A DNA stretch of 64,000 nt, taken from NCBI GenBank assembly GCA_050309735.1, contig JBNRMS010000068.1:24405-88404 (forward strand), given 5' to 3'. Shown piece by piece: positions 20,597-61,178 of the stretch (its first letter is position 1; the number at the start of each line of letters is the position of its first letter). The position numbers and the translations under genes are program-made. The notes beneath the pieces were generated by a model that worked only from the letters and a program-made list of their open reading frames with translations, did no database searches and was not told where the DNA came from. This DNA comes from Eubacteriales bacterium. Lineage in GTDB: Bacteria; Bacillota; Clostridia; Oscillospirales; CAG-272.

Positions 20597-21238
20597 TTAG
20601 CATCCGAGCAAATCAGCAAGCTCATCAAGCCCGTTTATTGTGATATCGGGCTTTGAGGATTCGTCGGCAGGCACCATATCAACAAACATTCCCCGCATTA
20701 TTCGCGCCGTCCTCATGCCGGTGAGCTTTGCCGGGCGGATATCGTTGTCGAGCCTGTCGCCGACCATAAGTGCGCGGGAGGGGGGGCATTTGGTTTCCTT
20801 GAGCGCATATTCATAAAATTCCACGGCAGGCTTGTGCAGTCCTACCTCATCAGACGCGAAAACTGCATCGAAATATTCGGAGATTCGGTATTTTATCAAT
20901 CTTCCGGCTGTTCCAGGGGTTTGATTTGAGATTATTCCAACTTTATATCGCCGCCCGATTCTGGTGAGTGCGCTCTCGGCATCGGGATAGGGCTCCTCGT
21001 AATCCGGGGTATATCGAGGAACCGTTGTTCCAAAGCTTTTTGCCGCGCCTATCATCGGTGATTTTCCTTTAGCTCCGTGTTTTTTAGCCTCAATTATAAA
21101 TTCCTCGGGCGACACTTCTATTCCCCGCCCGGCAAGCTCCTCAAGGGCTGCGGACATTCGTATTGCGTGCGAGCCGTCCTCGTTTATCAGTGTGTACCCG
21201 AGGTCAAAAAACACCCAGTCGATATCTTTCAAAATCAT
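20597..21238 (-). CDS. HAD-IA family hydrolase
   Basis: WVFFDLGYTL carries the DxG/DxT-type motif I, and VGDRLDNDI is motif IV. 213 aa with RBS GGAGG. Confidence 0.85.
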   Translation of the reverse strand: MILKDIDWVFFDLGYTLINEDGSHAIRMSAALEELAGRGIEVSPEEFIIEAKKHGAKGKSPMIGAAKSFGTTVPRYTPDYEEPYPDAESALTRIGRRYKVGIISNQTPGTAGRLIKYRISEYFDAVFASDEVGLHKPAVEFYEYALKETKCPPSRALMVGDRLDNDIRPAKLTGMRTARIMRGMFVDMVPADESSKPDITINGLDELADLLGC

Positions 21239-21256
21239 CCTCCATTATTCCTTTTC

Positions 21257-21445
21257 ATTGTTATACCATAGTCGCAAGTAAATTTCTCCCGGGCGTTACT
21301 TTGCCGTTGCGACATCGCAGGCTTCTTTGAAACCTGCCAGCGTGTACATTATACCATAGTCGCAAGTGAATTTCTCCCGGGCGCTACCTCGCCTTTGCGA
21401 CATAGCAGCTTTTTGCAAAAGCTGCCAGCGTATATATTATACCAC
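21257..21445 (-). repeat. Two tandem ~100-bp copies (plus a partial third -10 box) of a structured element capped by a -10 box, upstream of the HAD hydrolase gene
   Basis: Gene-sense unit: GGCAG-stem-loop-CTGC GATGTCGCAA N16 GGGAGAAATT(T)ACTTGCGACTATGGTATAA(C/T). Copies start at 21257 and 21357. It is related to the 60.2-60.5 kb repeats on the other strand. Confidence 0.8.
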
Positions 21446-21552
21446 ACAGACACCCTTTATTCAAGTCTGCCATATGTATTGTTTTATACTTTTCTGCATA
21501 TAAATAGTAAGCGTTATAATAGTTATAATGACAGACAAGGAGAATTTCGGAT

Positions 21553-35025: not shown

Positions 35026-37824
35026 CTATTGCTCTGCCCGTACAAAGGCTGACAGGGCGGCCGCTATTTTCGAGGCATCTTCGATTACGGATGGGTCGGA
35101 CGAGGTGGCAAGCCCGAGCGCCGAGAAGAGAGCGAGAATTTTTTTGCGATCGCTCTCTATCTGGCGGGGATAGTCGGGCCGGTATTTTATTTTCGAGCGA
35201 AGGCCGAGCGCAGCTTTGACATATTTCCCGGTAGCGCTGTCATATCTCAGAATGCGCTCGACCCCGCCGGTTGCAACCCGATAGGCGGCGGGCTCTATGA
35301 TATTTGTCACCGCGGGCGAGGCTAACTCATAATAAACCTTCACGCCGCTGACCGGCTTTGAAAGTGTCAGATAAATTCCGTTTACGCTGCCGATATTCCC
35401 CGATGCAGAGAGATATACTGTCCCGTTTTTTGCACCCTCAAGCTGCACCACATCGCCGCTCGAACCGCTGACAGTCATAACACCAACGCGACGGCAGAGT
35501 TTGCCGCTATCAAAGTCAAGCGTGTCGCAAATCCCACCAGGCAGGCGGCACATCTCATAATTCTGCGTGAATAACAGGCTCGAATCAAGCTCGTTTGTCT
35601 CGCCTCCGGTGCTGTTAAGTCCTCCGACAATAGCATTTGTCTGCCCCTTTGGGTGATAAACCCCGCCGATAATTTTTTCGATTTCGGCGGCGGGAAGCTC
35701 ATCCATACCCAGATAGGTCAGGTCGTAGACAGCCAGTCTCCGCATACTGATGACCTCCTCGGTCATCGTAAGGTTTACAGTGATTTTCGCACCGGGAGAC
35801 GGAAGGTTTACCACCGTTCCCGAGAAGCCGTATTCTGACAGCTCTGCCGGCTCACTTGAGCCGGGCAGTGTCCAACCGGCTCCCGACACATATGTGAGCA
35901 CATAGCTGCCGCTCGCAGCATTATAGCCGAGCGCTCCGGCAAATTTCACAGGATCAAGCACAGGATTGATAATTCCTATAATCCCGTATGTGGTATAGAT
36001 TGCAGAGGGGGTTCTTCCATATGGAAAGGTAAAATCAATATTTATCTCCGAGTTTGCCCTCAGAGCCTCGTTCGACGTGCTGAACACAACTTCAATCCCA
36101 TAGTTTGTCAAGTTGACAAGTTCCCCGACTCCATCTACCCTCCAACCGTAGTTATAGACAAAACGGTATTTGCCGTTCCACAGAGGAGAGAAGGCAGCGA
36201 TTTTATTAGAGAAAAGCACGGGATTCACCGTCACACTCGAAATATATCCCGAGTGGGAGGCCGCCGCTACAATCTGGCGCTTGTCCCACAGACCGACCGC
36301 CCCTTCTCCGTTAGTAGACGAGGTTATAATGCCCGAGACGCGCTGCCAGTCGTCTGTTGCACATGATTCGATATAATGCACACCTCCTCCGCCCCCGTCT
36401 GCGAAAAGGACGACGCCCGGTGCGGTCGTCGGTTTTTTTATTTCACCCTCAATATAGTATTTGTGTCCTGCGGTAAAAGAGACAGCGCGCATAATTTTTG
36501 CCGGAACGGCCTCGGCCGCCGTCGGCTGGTAGACCTCAATTGTAAAGGAATCAATCTCAAAATCATCCTCATAAACTGTTATTACAACAGCTCCGACTTC
36601 AAGACCTTCTATATCCCACCCTTCCCCGTCATATCTTTCAACAATATCTACTATCCCCGGCACGCTCGCCTCGCAATATTGCAGGCCTGTGTCATAACCG
36701 TCGACCTCGACGACGCCCCCGATTTGAATCAAATAATCGGCGTCTGATTCGACAATTTCCGGCGCGGGGGGAGGATTGAGGGTTATCGAGCCTGTGCCGC
36801 TCCAAACCTCAAATTCCCCTCCCTCGAATGACCAGCCCGAGGCGTCGGCAAAATTTCCGTTGTCAAGCAGCTGAACCACACTCATCCCCTCAAGCTCGAC
36901 AAGCTCAGCCGATGCCAGCTCTATGCCCTCCTCACCCGAGGCGCTGGTCCGCTCAAAGAGGATATCCTCAACCTCAATTTCTCTCACCGGGGACAGGTTG
37001 TCGGCCGCCCCGGCGATAAGATCTGCCGCCCGACCCGAGGCCGGGGCGTAGGTTTCGGCGTGGTTGTGCGAGATTGGCGCATAGGTGCCTGTGTGGTTGT
37101 GGGAAGCAGGTGCATATGCGCCTGTATGACTGTGTGTGAGAGGCGCATATGTACCCGCATGGCTGTGAGAGACCGGCGCATAAGTGCCTGTATGGTTGTG
37201 CAAGACATCGGCCTTGCCCGCCAGCGCAGCATGCACCCCTCCCGATGCCACCGCGCGCCCGCTGCCCGCAGTCGGAGCGGCATCTATTGCCGGCTTGTTT
37301 TTTATGTAATCGAGCGCCCGGCTGTCTGCCTGCGACCAGTCAGACTGCACATTTAACTGAGCACCCGACTCAATGCCCGCAAGCTTTGCTTTTTCCTCGT
37401 TTGTATAATCGTTTGAGGACAAACCCTTTCCCTCAGCGACATTCACCTTTCCGAGAAGAGCCGTCATGATCTGAGAGGCTTGGCTCGGAGTTGGAACAAG
37501 TGCCTCGTTTTCTGTCGGAACGCTCGTGTCAAGCACCCGCACAAGCCCCTCGGCGCTTATCAGCACCCGCTCGCCGCAATAGCCGCTCACCACAAACCTG
37601 CTTGTCCCCCCGACATTCATAACCTCCGCGGGGATGTTGATAGGCTCGCCGCCATATAGAATCGAGACCGCCTCTCCCTCGGGCGGGTAAAAGCTCACGG
37701 TTACCGCAAGCCCTTCCCACTCCTCACTAAGGACAAAATCAAGTTTTTCTATTCCGTAGCTCCCCCGCGTCCCCGCGACAAACCTTGCCGGATTCAAAAC
37801 ATATCTGTCAACTTTAATTATCAT
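35026..37824 (-). CDS. Phage tail-fibre / receptor-binding-protein-like protein (orphan)
   Basis: 932 aa from the ATG at 37824, which lies 8 nt after AAAGG. Tail-fibre motifs GLSSNDYTNEEKAKLAGIESGAQ and DWSQADSRALDYIKNKP are present, along with five 11-aa HxH(T/A)GxYAPxS repeats. CBM-like (LLDNGNFADASGWSFEGGEFEV) and Ig-like segments follow. It has its own extended -10 promoter and its own terminator. Confidence 0.8.
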   Translation of the reverse strand: MIIKVDRYVLNPARFVAGTRGSYGIEKLDFVLSEEWEGLAVTVSFYPPEGEAVSILYGGEPINIPAEVMNVGGTSRFVVSGYCGERVLISAEGLVRVLDTSVPTENEALVPTPSQASQIMTALLGKVNVAEGKGLSSNDYTNEEKAKLAGIESGAQLNVQSDWSQADSRALDYIKNKPAIDAAPTAGSGRAVASGGVHAALAGKADVLHNHTGTYAPVSHSHAGTYAPLTHSHTGAYAPASHNHTGTYAPISHNHAETYAPASGRAADLIAGAADNLSPVREIEVEDILFERTSASGEEGIELASAELVELEGMSVVQLLDNGNFADASGWSFEGGEFEVWSGTGSITLNPPPAPEIVESDADYLIQIGGVVEVDGYDTGLQYCEASVPGIVDIVERYDGEGWDIEGLEVGAVVITVYEDDFEIDSFTIEVYQPTAAEAVPAKIMRAVSFTAGHKYYIEGEIKKPTTAPGVVLFADGGGGGVHYIESCATDDWQRVSGIITSSTNGEGAVGLWDKRQIVAAASHSGYISSVTVNPVLFSNKIAAFSPLWNGKYRFVYNYGWRVDGVGELVNLTNYGIEVVFSTSNEALRANSEINIDFTFPYGRTPSAIYTTYGIIGIINPVLDPVKFAGALGYNAASGSYVLTYVSGAGWTLPGSSEPAELSEYGFSGTVVNLPSPGAKITVNLTMTEEVISMRRLAVYDLTYLGMDELPAAEIEKIIGGVYHPKGQTNAIVGGLNSTGGETNELDSSLLFTQNYEMCRLPGGICDTLDFDSGKLCRRVGVMTVSGSSGDVVQLEGAKNGTVYLSASGNIGSVNGIYLTLSKPVSGVKVYYELASPAVTNIIEPAAYRVATGGVERILRYDSATGKYVKAALGLRSKIKYRPDYPRQIESDRKKILALFSALGLATSSDPSVIEDASKIAAALSAFVRAEQ
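37039..37200 (-). repeat. Five tandem 33-bp (11-aa) HxH repeats inside the tail-fibre-like gene
   Basis: HNHTGTYAPVS / HSHAGTYAPLT / HSHTGAYAPAS / HNHTGTYAPIS / HNHAETYAPAS (residues ~214-267 of the track ORF). Confidence 0.85.
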
Positions 37825-37916
37825 GTCTTTGCCTTTCAAAGGCGCTTTCTGTTATCCCGCGTAAATTATATCAAAGCACCCTCTCTTGTGACTGACATCT
37901 TTATGTCAGCACAACT

Positions 37917-54938: not shown

Positions 54939-56483
54939 TCACTCCTCCGCCCAAAGCTCTATAATCACAGTATTATATTCACCGTTGCGATAGAATGTTA
55001 CCATAACACTGTCTCCGGCAAACTTCTCGTTGATGATATTCATCACCTCACCCGTGCTTAAAACCTTCTTGCCGTCAACCTCTGTTATAATATCGCCCGG
55101 CTCAAGTTTTCCGGCTGCTCCGTATCTTTGGTTAACCTCGGACACATATACGCCGGCAATATCAGCGAGTATAACCGTGCCGTCAATAAATCTATTCTCG
55201 CCGGCAGAGACCGAGATAGCGCTTATCCCAATCACAGCGCGCCGCTGAGCGACATCCTGCGAGCCTGTCGAAGAGCCGGTTTCTATAATTTCGTTGAGAA
55301 TCGGGAGCGCACCGTTTGTCGGTATTGCGAAGCCTATACCGTCAAATCCGTCTCCAAGCTTAAGCGTGATAATGCCGATAACCTGCCCGTATTCGTTGAT
55401 AAGCGGACCGCCCGAATTTCCGGGGTTGACAGTCGCGTTTGTCTGAATCAGGGTCATTTTTTTGGACATTACGCCGGTTTGGTCATATATTTTTACATTG
55501 CGGTCGATACCCGAAATTATGCCGTTAGTTGTGGTTTCAGCGTATTCCAGCCCTGCCGGAGTTCCTATCGCCACCACAAGCTCGCCGACTATAAGCTCGC
55601 TCGAGTCGCCAAACTCGGCCGGCGTCAGCCGGTCGGCATCAATCTTGATAACCGCAAGATCGGAGAGCGCATCGTATCCAACGACCTCAGCATTGTATTC
55701 CCTGCCGTCACCGACAGTCACCACAATTGATAGGCTTTTCTCAACCACATGGTAGTTGGTTGCTATATAGCCGTCGGCCGACATGATTATGCCGGTTCCA
55801 ACGCCCGAGCCAACACCCAAAAGGTTCTCGTAGCTCACCGTTATACCGACCACAGACGGCCTTACCTTTGCGGCAATTTCGGGAATTGTTAACACGCCGC
55901 TGTCATTATCAAGCTCGCGAACAAAAATTGTCCGCGTGGGGCGCGGGATCAGCGCACCGCTCTCGTATAAAAGAATACCGAGCATCGTTGTAAAGCAGAG
56001 CGCGAAGGCAATTGTCATAATAATTGCGTAGGTAAGTACGCCGGAATTCCGGCGTTTTTGCTCGACGCGTCGTAACTCGTCGCCATATGTCCAGCGATAT
56101 TCGGTGGGAGGCGGCGGGTCGGATAGTGCCTCCCCCCGCGGGGGAAGTCCGATATCTGTGCGAGGGTTGCCCGTGCCGGGCAGATTTATCTCGGGGGTGC
56201 GGGGTGTTTCCCTGTCAGGCGGGTTTATCTCGGGAGTGCGGGGTATTTCCTTGTCAGGCGGGTTTATCTCGGGAGTGCGGGGTGTTTCCCTGTCAGGCGG
56301 GTTTACCTCGGGGGACGGAGAGGGGCGGTCACCCGGCTCGGCGGGCGGATTCTTCGGCTCTGCCGCCCTCGGTCCGGCGGGCGTTGCCATCTCATTTTTT
56401 TGCGTATTGCCGCTCTCTCTCATATGATTCACATCTATCTCACCGCTCGTATTGTCGGGACTAATTTTTCTGTAATCTTCCAT
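54939..56483 (-). CDS. HtrA/DegP-type serine protease with a PDZ domain and a proline-rich repeat N-terminus
   Basis: GNSGGPLIN contains the active-site Ser; TNYHVV contains the His. A C-terminal PDZ is present (GVYVSEVNQRYGAAGKLEPGDIITEVDGKKV). The N-terminal cytoplasmic region has 13-aa repeats and precedes a TM helix. Confidence 0.9.
   Translation of the reverse strand: MEDYRKISPDNTSGEIDVNHMRESGNTQKNEMATPAGPRAAEPKNPPAEPGDRPSPSPEVNPPDRETPRTPEINPPDKEIPRTPEINPPDRETPRTPEINLPGTGNPRTDIGLPPRGEALSDPPPPTEYRWTYGDELRRVEQKRRNSGVLTYAIIMTIAFALCFTTMLGILLYESGALIPRPTRTIFVRELDNDSGVLTIPEIAAKVRPSVVGITVSYENLLGVGSGVGTGIIMSADGYIATNYHVVEKSLSIVVTVGDGREYNAEVVGYDALSDLAVIKIDADRLTPAEFGDSSELIVGELVVAIGTPAGLEYAETTTNGIISGIDRNVKIYDQTGVMSKKMTLIQTNATVNPGNSGGPLINEYGQVIGIITLKLGDGFDGIGFAIPTNGALPILNEIIETGSSTGSQDVAQRRAVIGISAISVSAGENRFIDGTVILADIAGVYVSEVNQRYGAAGKLEPGDIITEVDGKKVLSTGEVMNIINEKFAGDSVMVTFYRNGEYNTVIIELWAEE
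56149..56312 (-). repeat. 39-bp tandem repeat (about 3 full copies plus degenerate flanks) inside the htrA-like gene
   Basis: Plus-strand units start at 56188, 56227, 56266 and 56305 (atctcggg(g/a)gtgcggggt(g/a)tttcc(c/t)tgtcaggcgggttt). They encode (E)INPPD(R/K)E(T/I)PRTP. Confidence 0.9.
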
Positions 56484-58145: not shown

Positions 58146-58838
58146 TCAACCTAACAATTCAAATTTATATCCGACTCCCCAGACCGTTTTTAATACCCAT
58201 TTATCCGAGATTCCCTCAAGCTTCTCGCGCAGCCTCTTGACATGAACGTCAACCGTTCTTGAGTCTCCAAGATAGTCAAATCCCCAAACCTTGTCAAGCA
58301 ATTGATCGCGCGTGAAAACATGATTATAATTTGATGCAAGGAAATAGAGCAGCTCAAGCTCTTTTGGGGGTATGTCAACCGGCTTGCCGCAGAGCTTCAG
58401 CTCATATTTCAGCTTGCTTATCTCGATATTATCGTATTTAATAACCTCGTTGTTGTCGGCATTTGTATGCGCCGAATAGCGGCGCAGCACGGCCTTTGCC
58501 CGCGCTGACAGTTCCTTCATATCAAAGGGTTTGACCACAAAATCATCTGCTCCAAGCTCAAGCCCGAGCACCTTGTCAAAGACCTCGCCCTTTGCCGTTA
58601 TCATAATAACCGGCTTTGAGGACATCTCGCGTATCTCGCGCAGCACCTGCCATCCGTCTTTTTTGGGAAGCATAACGTCAAGCAGCACCAAATCGGGCTC
58701 AAAAACCTTAAAGGAATTGACACCCTCGGCTCCGTCTTGGGCCGTTTTCACCTGATAATTTTCATTCTCAAAATATAGGCGTAAAAGTTCGCATATATTG
58801 GGGTCGTCATCAACGACCAGAATTTTGGTATCAATCAT
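58146..58838 (-). CDS. OmpR/PhoB family response regulator
   Basis: The receiver domain ILVVDDDPNICELL...LVLLDVMLPKKDG carries the phospho-acceptor Asp. The C-terminal winged helix reads VFTRDQLLDKVWGFDYLGDSRTVDVHVKRLREKL. Confidence 0.93.
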   Translation of the reverse strand: MIDTKILVVDDDPNICELLRLYFENENYQVKTAQDGAEGVNSFKVFEPDLVLLDVMLPKKDGWQVLREIREMSSKPVIMITAKGEVFDKVLGLELGADDFVVKPFDMKELSARAKAVLRRYSAHTNADNNEVIKYDNIEISKLKYELKLCGKPVDIPPKELELLYFLASNYNHVFTRDQLLDKVWGFDYLGDSRTVDVHVKRLREKLEGISDKWVLKTVWGVGYKFELLG

Positions 58839-59009
58839 TATGTAACCCCCTCTGTTTTATCCGTATATGTTTATTAACTTAAAAAAGAAAGACGCAACGC
58901 GGCTTCAGCCAAACCTGCCGATATATATATATTATAACATATGTAAAATATTTTGCAATTGCTTTTTTGCTTTTTCATTTGTTTTTTTGCGCGGTTTGTC
59001 CTCTCACTA

Positions 59010-59038
59010 TTGCCAAAAGAGCGTTTTTGAGTTATAAT
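59010..59038 (+). promoter_or_regulatory. Candidate ychF promoter
   Basis: TTGCCA-17 nt-TATAAT. Confidence 0.55.
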
Positions 59039-60204: not shown

Positions 60205-60510
60205 GACATAAGATATAATAAGAACATTGGCAGGTTTCCGAGAAACTTGCACTTTGCGACTGGCTATGGCTCAACATTCACATTAGCAAGTTTCTCCGAA
60301 AGCTGCGATGTCGCAAAAGCAAGCGAACGCATGGGAGAGATTCACTTGCACCTATGGATATAATATACTCTTTGGCAGGTTTCCGAGAAACTTGCACTTT
60401 GCGACTGGCTATGGCTCAACATTCACATTAGCAAGTTTCTCCGAAAGCTGCGATGTCGCAAAAGCAAGCGAACGCATGGGAGAGATTCACTTGCGACTAT
60501 GATATAATGA
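60205..60510 (+). repeat. Two near-identical tandem 144-bp copies (plus a partial leading -10 box) of the structured element capped by a -10 box, between ychF and trmB
   Basis: TATAAT boxes at 60215, 60359 and 60503, exactly 144 bp apart. The units from 60230 and 60374 are identical over about 122 nt and diverge only at cacttgcACCtatgG versus cacttgcGACtatg. Confidence 0.9.
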
Positions 60511-60527: not shown

Positions 60528-61178
60528 ATGAGAATGAGACATAAAAAACGTGGCGCCGAGCGTATCGCCGCCCTCTCTCACCTTTTGATTGAAAAACCCG
60601 AGACCCTCATTGCCGACCCGTCAGCCCCCTTCGGCGCGACCCGGCCGCTGCACCTTGAGATAGGCTGCGGCAAGGGAGCCTTCGCCTCCCGCCTCGCGGC
60701 GGCAAATCCCGGCATAAATCTAATCGCCGTCGAGCGTATTCCCGACGTCGCTTGTATTGCCCTTGAGCGCGCCGAGGCCGAAAAAGAAGAGCGACCGGCC
60801 GATAATCTGCGCTTTATTATTGCAAACGCGCAAAGTGTCGGCGAGTGGCTGCCTGCGGCGAGCATTGAGTGCATTTATCTGAATTTCAGCGACCCATGGC
60901 CAAAGAAGGCTCATGCCAAGCGTCGCTTAACCCACGCCGACTTCTTAAAAATCTACCGCCGCCTCTTGATTGACGGCGGTCGGCTTGAGATGAAAACAGA
61001 CAACACCGCCCTTTTCGATTTCAGCCTTGAGCAGTTTGCCGCCGAGGGGCTTGATATAGCCTGGCAAACTCGAGACCTGCACTCCTCAAAGAGAGCCGCC
61101 GGCAATATCATGACCGAATATGAGAGAAACTTCACCGCGGCAGGTGTTCCTATCTGTGCGGCGACAATAATATTTTAG
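60528..61178 (+). CDS. trmB: tRNA (guanine46-N7)-methyltransferase
   Basis: LEIGCGKGAF, IYLNFSDPWPKKAHAKRRL and TEYERNF. Confidence 0.93.
   Translation: MRMRHKKRGAERIAALSHLLIEKPETLIADPSAPFGATRPLHLEIGCGKGAFASRLAAANPGINLIAVERIPDVACIALERAEAEKEERPADNLRFIIANAQSVGEWLPAASIECIYLNFSDPWPKKAHAKRRLTHADFLKIYRRLLIDGGRLEMKTDNTALFDFSLEQFAAEGLDIAWQTRDLHSSKRAAGNIMTEYERNFTAAGVPICAATIIF

Follow-up and report, generated by a model that had tools for sequence, protein, structure and literature searches.

The 64-kb stretch of DNA analysed here (the window) carries a lineage-restricted repeat of approximately 88 bp, which we interpret, with about even confidence, as a duplicating and portable promoter-plus-leader cassette with a maintained hairpin. 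The repeat has a defined anatomy, is found at three loci, has been gained and lost between congeners, diverges at a near-neutral rate and keeps the pairing of its hairpin. It is most probably not a conserved regulatory RNA.

The repeat unit and the array upstream of the HAD hydrolase

Upstream of a HAD hydrolase gene, positions 21260-21435 of the window (minus strand) are comprised of two head-to-tail units of 88 nt, A and B, which are 82-83% identical (TRF and repeat search). An earlier note on this DNA had described two units of about 100 bp at this place; both are present, at 88 nt, and the layout it gave for them was confirmed by direct reading of the two copies. A unit consists, in this order, of N8, TGGCAG, a 9-bp hairpin, CTGC, (G/T)ATGTCGCAA, N16, GGGAGAAATT(C/T)AC, TTGCGAC and TATGGTATAA(T/C). 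The hairpin has the consensus GCAGGTTTC/GAAACCTGC over the units, and an inverted repeat, ATGTCGCAA ... TTGCGACTAT, flanks a variable segment of 29 nt. The features of the locus are:

21436-21464, minus strand: promoter P1 of the HAD transcription unit (promoter scan, 10/12 plus TG), with a -35 box TTGAAT (21464-21459), a 17-nt spacer and an extended -10 box TGTGGTATAAT (21446-21436)
21348-21435, minus strand: unit A, the distal copy, 88 nt (TRF, repeat search; covariance-model score 105.7 bits)
21435-21428, minus strand: N8 of unit A
21425-21405, minus strand: hairpin of unit A, GCAGCTTTT-GCA-AAAAGCTGC, holding both compensated pairs
21401-21395 and 21365-21359, minus strand: GTCGCAA and TTGCGAC of unit A
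21358-21348, minus strand: 3' end of unit A, TATGGTATAAT
21260-21347, minus strand: unit B, the proximal copy, 88 nt (TRF, repeat search; covariance-model score 103.4 bits)
21337-21317, minus strand: hairpin of unit B, GCAGGTTTC-AAA-GAAGCCTGC, with one U-G
21313-21307 and 21277-21271, minus strand: GTCGCAA and TTGCGAC of unit B
21270-21260, minus strand: 3' end of unit B, TATGGTATAAC
21230-21259, minus strand: native short leader of the HAD gene, AATGAAAAGGAATAATGGAGGATGATT followed by TTG, 96% identical to the sister genome

Every unit has its start exactly 8 nt after a TATAAT box and ends in a near-consensus TRTGnTATAAT. The usual promoters of this genome have the form TTGACA-17-TGnTATAAT, which the unit ends match in their TRTGnTATAAT part; the internal -10 boxes, which come without a -35 box, are on this consensus match putative promoters. 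Of the seven copies that follow a -10 box, six have a purine at position 7 of the N8, and since a sigma-A start is expected at this position, the hairpin is predicted to begin 2-3 nt into such a transcript. At the HAD, trmB and response-regulator loci, every copy is sense-oriented and separates a promoter from its gene, and the arrays are head-to-tail. The GGGAGA loop motif varies, with GTGAGA and GGGATA in the sister genome GCA_964367925.1. A small ORF behind the GGGAG...TTG motif was rejected as coding, its length and sequence differing in every copy.

Two further observations concern promoter-like sequences on the plus strand. At 21413-21440 the derived hairpin of copy A makes an opposite-strand TTGCAA, 16-17 nt before a TATTAT, possibly a divergent promoter toward the M23 / M50 (spoIVFA/spoIVFB-like) gene pair. 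At 2867-2900 a TTGACT-17-TATGGTATAAT is followed 2 nt later by TGGCAG, with a weak covariance-model match (12 bits, E = 0.65) that is probably a chance resemblance to a unit junction. Two other tandem repeats of the window fall within the extents of long minus-strand ORFs: 37061-37207 (33 nt x 4.5) in ORF 35026-37839, and 56185-56312 (39 nt x 3.3) in ORF 54939-56483.

The HAD gene and promoter P1

The HAD gene (20597-21232, minus strand) had been assigned a start at ATG 21238, a codon that abuts the Shine-Dalgarno sequence. Its start is instead the TTG at 21232 (21232-21230), 6 nt past the Shine-Dalgarno GGAGG (21243-21239), and the protein read from this TTG is 100% identical to database protein P0001 (211 aa). 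The proximal -10 box, formerly placed about 30 nt from the ATG, does exist; it is the TATAAC at 21265-21260, 27 nt before the TTG. The gene has no homologue of more than 44% identity outside the two sister genomes, and homologues of about 42% identity were rejected as comparators, as they are located in an unrelated obg-nadD context. Motif I of the protein reads FFDLGYT, in which the second Asp is missing.

Promoter P1 precedes unit A and is conserved in the orthologous contig of the sister genome (L175) and in a more distant one (L176), hence in three genomes in all. Both species have a degenerate gene-proximal -10 copy, which reads TATAAC in the window and TATAAA in the sister genome. Because P1 is conserved and this gene-proximal box is degenerate in both species, the HAD array is, from its sequence, probably transcribed from P1 as a long 5' UTR; the same degeneracy suggests that the promoter copies at this locus are apparently not kept by selection. 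Contig L176 carries an otherwise syntenic DUF1836 / M23-M50 locus that retains P1 and has neither the HAD gene nor the array, and with the HAD gene missing there, gene and array look like a lineage-specific insertion. A Logan contig of 2.1 kb from the same species as the window (L174, SRR13001970) encodes an identical M23 protein; its end falls precisely within unit A, as is typical where an assembly breaks at a repeat, and a single base of the N8 sets it apart from the window (ATACACGC against ATATACGC).

The trmB array and the response-regulator locus

The second array of the window fills the gap of 327 nt between ychF and trmB, and a third, partial occurrence lies at a response-regulator gene. 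Their features are:

60214-60219, plus strand: opening TATAAT box, with a weak -35 box TTAACG within the end of ychF
60220-60276, plus strand: truncated unit C1, 57 nt (end-to-end covariance-model alignment with an internal deletion), consisting of N8, a hairpin GCAGGTTTC-CGA-GAAACTTGC (60230-60250, one G-U) and a degenerate tail ACTTTGCGACTGGCTATGGCTCAAC
60277-60364, plus strand: full unit C2, 88 nt (covariance model, 93.1 bits), ending in TATGGATATAAT; its degenerate hairpin GCAAGTTTC-TCC-GAAAGCTGC is paired at 7 of 9 positions, and helix 2 is broken, with a 3' arm mutated to TTGCACC
60365-60421, plus strand: truncated unit D1, a duplicate of C1 (TRF period 145, 97% identity)
60422-60508, plus strand: full unit D2, 87 nt (covariance model, 101.6 bits)
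58891-58958, minus strand: response-regulator promoter TTGCAA-17-TATGTTATAAT followed by CGGCAGGTTTGGCTGAAGCCGCGTTGCGTC, with a weak covariance-model match at 58932-59027

The core that the earlier note had seen in the copies near 60 kb (60277-60364 and 60422-60508) was recovered by a motif search, with four matches in all against 0.03 expected. The extra segment of these copies, put at about 80 nt, is actually 57 nt long (145 minus 88). As this segment is an internally deleted unit, retaining the hairpin and ACTTTGCGACTGGCTATGGCTCAAC, the 145-nt repeat is composed of a truncated unit plus a full unit. Alternatively, C1 can be drawn as the outer part of a long stem (19 of 21 bp) with 60286-60306. 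Unit D2 ends in TATGATATAAT, a TRTGnTATAAT, 19 nt before the trmB ATG at 60528.

At the response-regulator locus, the CGGCAGGTTTGGCTGAAGCCGCGTTGCGTC segment of 58891-58958 is homologous to the 5' third of the unit, a 30-nt stretch of it corresponding to the hairpin plus GCGATGTCGC, and by its sequence the 58891-58958 stretch is a remnant or progenitor of this 5' third. Where the window has only this remnant, the sister genome (contig L173) has one complete unit, R, between the promoter and the leader of the response-regulator gene. Unit R is the most consensus-like of all, being 85-88% identical to the full units of the HAD locus (A, B and rel1) and 76-80% to the trmB copies. The native leader of the response-regulator gene is homologous to the 5' part of the unit in both genomes; in L173 a 39-nt segment occurs twice at this locus at 88-nt spacing, and a 17-nt direct repeat there reflects the homology between native leader and unit and not a target duplication. 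Given the full unit that the sister genome has at this site, the repeat family may have originated here.

Distribution and rate of change

The copy survey covered the 64 kb of the window genome and approximately 12.5 kb of the sister genome (about 75 kb in all), and the repeat has so far been seen only in the window genome and its one sequenced sister species. Within the 64 kb, nhmmer and the covariance model returned the HAD and trmB copies only, including the two truncated ones. A scan of the same 64 kb against Rfam gave nothing but a tRNA at the gathering threshold, and over the HAD and trmB arrays only sub-threshold chance matches at E up to 10. The exact pattern ATGTCGCAA-N14-18-GGGAGNNATTNACTTGC had 0 matches in genome and metagenome collections; a looser pattern had 10 matches in viral contigs, judged to be chance because the similarity does not extend, and phages and plasmids had no match to the unit by blastn.

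The trmB locus was compared through a TrmB-based retrieval of 160 loci from uncultured gut Clostridia, the best TrmB proteins being 73% and 68% identical; metagenome TrmB loci were rejected as closer comparators, the best, at 68% identity, being no nearer than the genome set. The covariance model found no unit over approximately 0.5 Mb of relatives' TrmB loci. The ychF gene lies upstream of trmB on the same strand in 40 loci and is directly adjacent in 33 of these, with a gap of -1 to 67 nt, the adjacent pairs usually overlapping as TGATG. A protein search identified the sister genome, GCA_964367925.1, with 90% amino-acid identity in TrmB and 88-95% nucleotide identity in coding sequences; its ychF-trmB spacer (contig L173) is 40 nt long and contains neither a unit nor a TATAAT. 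This empty spacer marks the trmB array as a recent insertion and assigns the -10 box to the element and not to the target. For the same absence of a TATAAT, the -10 box was rejected as a target-site duplication, and no clear target-site duplication was seen between the empty site in L173 and the filled site in the window. The repeat search revealed no terminal inverted repeats for unit or arrays, all inverted repeats being internal.

The HAD locus of the sister genome (contig L175) does have an array, of about three units, one of them interrupted by a MITE-like insert. One unit is full, another has a 3' end that is degenerate and a third is partial, and the array also holds about 220 nt of inserted DNA. 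The insertion includes a MITE-like element of 137 bp (L175:552-688) with perfect 27-bp terminal inverted repeats (GAGATTGCGGGTCAAGCCCGCAATGAC), each arm of which is itself a hairpin; neither the window nor any other locus retrieved contains this element.

Between the window and the sister genome, the identity of units at the orthologous HAD locus is 74-80%. The third codon positions of the HAD gene are 84% identical and the flanks 94-96%, with 94% for the non-coding region upstream of P1, which indicates that the units drift at about the neutral rate. What stays constant among the drifting units is the pairing of the hairpin, the blocks ATGTCGCAA and TTGCGACTAT, and most of the -10 boxes.

These data bear on the view of the unit as a small repeat, selfish or neutral, that plays no part in expression and whose promoter boxes are incidental. 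The hairpin might then be kept for propagation, for instance as a single-stranded DNA hairpin recognised by a Y1 transposase (as for REP/RAYT and IS200/IS605 derivatives), or be restored by intrastrand template switching in a quasi-palindrome. We consider this view unlikely. Presence, absence and copy number of the units differ between the two congeners, whose genomes are about 90% identical, divergence proceeds at the neutral rate, and the lack of target-site duplication and terminal inverted repeats recalls peel-and-paste elements. Compared with its orthologue, the hairpin of copy A shows six clustered changes, symmetric about the loop and within 13 nt, and template switching during replication yields such loop-symmetric clusters without selection on RNA (PMC8794818). 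In the trmB units, hairpin 1 has a right arm that is, through the loops, a perfect reverse complement of the left arm of hairpin 2 (19/21 overall). No second copy of the variant hairpin of copy A, as a donor, was found within the window. The sense orientation at all three loci, the exact 8-nt offset and the regenerated TRTGnTATAAT are, however, hard to ascribe to chance in a purely selfish element; the unit has no GTAG/CGTC tag, no transposase was seen in the 64 kb, and three loci in about 75 kb is a low copy density.

Hairpin structure and covariation

The 9-bp hairpin carries two pairs changed on both sides (G-C to C-G and C-G to U-A) and one U-G, all of them present as the earlier note had described. 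Its further claim, that this covariation reflects selection on RNA structure, holds in part: the hairpin is kept non-randomly, but the covariation is not statistically established. In simulations, 16 random substitutions per 88 nt gave at least two compensated pairs at P = 0.005, and five random substitutions in the stem left 9/9 pairing at P = 0.003. In a structure alignment of nine sequences from two genomes, 94% of the cells of this stem (helix 1) are paired, both double changes occur in copy A alone, and 75 of 500 shuffles reach that count, while copies C2 and D2 have two uncompensated hairpin positions. Helix 2 (GTCGCAA/TTGCGAC) shows zero covariation and is broken in copy C; helix 3, a third small stem, has 72% of its cells paired, and the RNAalifold covariation term amounts to only -0.76 kcal/mol.

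The wobble pair had also been taken to place the functional strand on the gene sense. This argument is weak, with only two events to draw on and an antisense strand that folds as well as or better than the sense strand, and an internal helix of the trmB copies runs counter to it, a C-A on the sense strand being a G-U on the antisense strand. Duplicated promoter DNA, which the earlier note had named as the alternative that would defeat a functional RNA, is at least as well supported as the RNA.

That the unit is a structured cis-regulatory RNA (riboswitch-like, or a protein-binding leader) with tandem domains, transcribed from the upstream promoter and controlling the downstream gene, is, for these reasons and others, distinctly improbable in our judgement. 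In its favour, the HAD array is probably a 5' UTR, given a conserved P1 directed into it and degenerate proximal -10 copies; every copy is sense-oriented in a leader position; and the hairpin is maintained, with its two compensated pairs and two G-U wobbles on the sense strand, the sense-strand folds being somewhat more stable than shuffles (z = -2.1 to -4.6). Against it stand the lack of any credible Rfam match even at E up to 10; sense strands without a terminator in the HAD or trmB array and without a helix sequestering the Shine-Dalgarno, which is unpaired in the fold of the whole leader; and orthologous sites that are empty in the 90%-identical genome and in 33 other relatives. The downstream genes (HAD hydrolase, TrmB, response regulator) are unrelated, divergence is about neutral, the GGGAGA loop varies, and the inner fold differs between two unit subtypes; the covariation is not significant, and the antisense folds equally well. 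When a palindromic repeat is known from a few paralogous copies, compensatory changes among them do not suffice to call a regulatory RNA, because such repeats keep hairpins for other reasons.

The invariant arms as a possible operator

The ATGTCGCAA and TTGCGACTAT arms are not accounted for by a promoter or hairpin role. No other long block is invariant across the full units of the two species, and the flanks of the arms drift, which would be expected if the unit were an operator-carrying promoter module in which ATGTCGCAA-N29-TTGCGACTAT, and perhaps the palindromic hairpin, are putative DNA sites for a transcription factor. A candidate for this factor is the OmpR-family response regulator (gene at 58146-58838), whose own promoter seems to have given rise to the repeat, and as the unit spread, HAD and trmB would join its regulon; the leader of that gene is homologous to the 5' part of the unit in both genomes, and unit R at this locus is the most consensus-like. 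Direct repeats are the usual binding sites of OmpR-family proteins. The half-sites here are atypical, lying 36 bp apart centre to centre, no known motif matches the element, and a compensatory change in the hairpin speaks against base-specific protein recognition of the palindrome. There is a precedent for a regulon-defining repeat in REP2/CREN of Neisseria (PMC3184786), and even so we rate the operator as very unlikely.

Little probability likewise attaches to a composite reading, that of a self-propagating regulatory module born at an autoregulated two-component response-regulator promoter, each copy of which wires another gene (HAD, trmB) into the regulon. Its cargo may be the operator of the regulator, or a leader RNA domain bound by a trans-acting factor, together with the promoter and the 5' hairpin. 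If true, it would mean that a mobile promoter cassette has enlarged a regulon in an uncultured lineage of gut Clostridia. Read as sigma-54, sigma-H or sporulation-sigma promoters or as Spo0A boxes, the conserved blocks do not, to our knowledge, fit in spacing or consensus, and an attC site was rejected on anatomy.

Comparison with known elements

The functionally closest known elements appear, by analogy, to be REP2/CREN of Neisseria, with bcr1 of Bacillus also close. Like the unit, REP2/CREN are small dispersed repeats that lack terminal inverted repeats; they contain a promoter and two inverted repeats predicted to fold into stem-loops, and they sit immediately upstream of ORFs in sense orientation (PMC3184786); the unit, too, lacks terminal inverted repeats, has two internal stem-loops and, by consensus match, a putative promoter inside, and lies upstream of ORFs. 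REP2 differs in containing an RBS and ATG, in not forming head-to-tail arrays and in being proteobacterial, whereas here the Shine-Dalgarno and start lie outside the repeat. Pattern scans and the covariance model found no homologue of the unit outside the two genomes. The bcr1 element of the Bacillus cereus group (approximately 155 bp) is likewise a small Firmicutes repeat with a non-conserved distribution between close relatives; it is transcribed, and compensatory base changes keep its double stem-loop (PMC3184786). In contrast to the unit, with its three known loci, tandem arrays and lack of target duplication, bcr1 is flanked by direct repeats of 5 bp, occurs many times in a genome and is not promoter-proximal.

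Correia elements (CREE) and other promoter-carrying MITEs resemble the unit in being short, non-coding and strain-variable and in bringing promoter boxes to genes (PMC3184786), but those of the Correia type are bounded by terminal inverted repeats of 26 bp and duplicate a TA target, two features absent here. Among the hallmarks of MITEs, the unit shares the short, non-coding and dispersed nature with presence-absence polymorphism (three loci, no ORF conserved across copies) and has neither terminal inverted repeats nor a target-site duplication. The pneumococcal BOX element is also a modular intergenic repeat with variable tandem internal modules and a predicted stable structure, but it is built from distinct A, B and C modules, has more than 100 copies, is not known to be promoter-defined and shows no sequence similarity to the unit (see also PMC3184786). 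REP/BIME elements are characterised, in the account given in PMC3733652, by a GC-rich palindrome of 20-40 nt with a GTAG or CGTC tag at its foot; the foot of the unit hairpin is TGGCAG...CTGC(G/T)ATG, with no such tag.

Tandem riboswitch aptamers (for example glycine or guanidine-II) also line up, one after the other within a 5' leader, a pair of similar structured units, but they span wide taxa and have invariant ligand-binding cores, covarying stems and an expression platform, none of which was seen here. In type III toxin-antitoxin systems, a ToxI-like RNA is made of 34-48 nt repeats in tandem, with a terminator next and then the gene of an endoribonuclease toxin. Such a repeat RNA was rejected on anatomy: the units are 88 nt long, a terminator is lacking, and the genes downstream encode a HAD hydrolase, TrmB and a response regulator. 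The element thus belongs to neither the REP2/CREN nor the bcr1 family, falls outside the MITE, REP and riboswitch definitions tested, and constitutes a new lineage-restricted family.

A proposed promoter-plus-leader cassette and its significance

As a promoter-plus-leader cassette, the unit could be copied to a new promoter-proximal site, and its arrays would grow and shrink by slippage or by unequal recombination between the repeated -10 boxes. Each copy would supply an extended -10 promoter, as its match to the consensus suggests, and would give the transcripts that result a stem-loop at their 5' end, with a stem-loop also lying within the long UTR from the upstream promoter. By analogy, this stem-loop would most plausibly act as an mRNA-stabilising 5' structure, in which the pairing is constrained and not the sequence; 5' stem-loops that stabilise mRNA are known, the aprE leader and the work of Emory et al. 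being instances given in PMC3997798. At trmB, the cassette promoters would uncouple the gene from ychF and replace translational coupling.

If this cassette reading is right, trmB, ancestrally coupled to ychF, would have gained its own promoter array within the divergence of two genomes that are about 90% identical, and the family would offer a clean, datable case in which small repeats have rewired transcription in an uncultured lineage of gut Clostridia.
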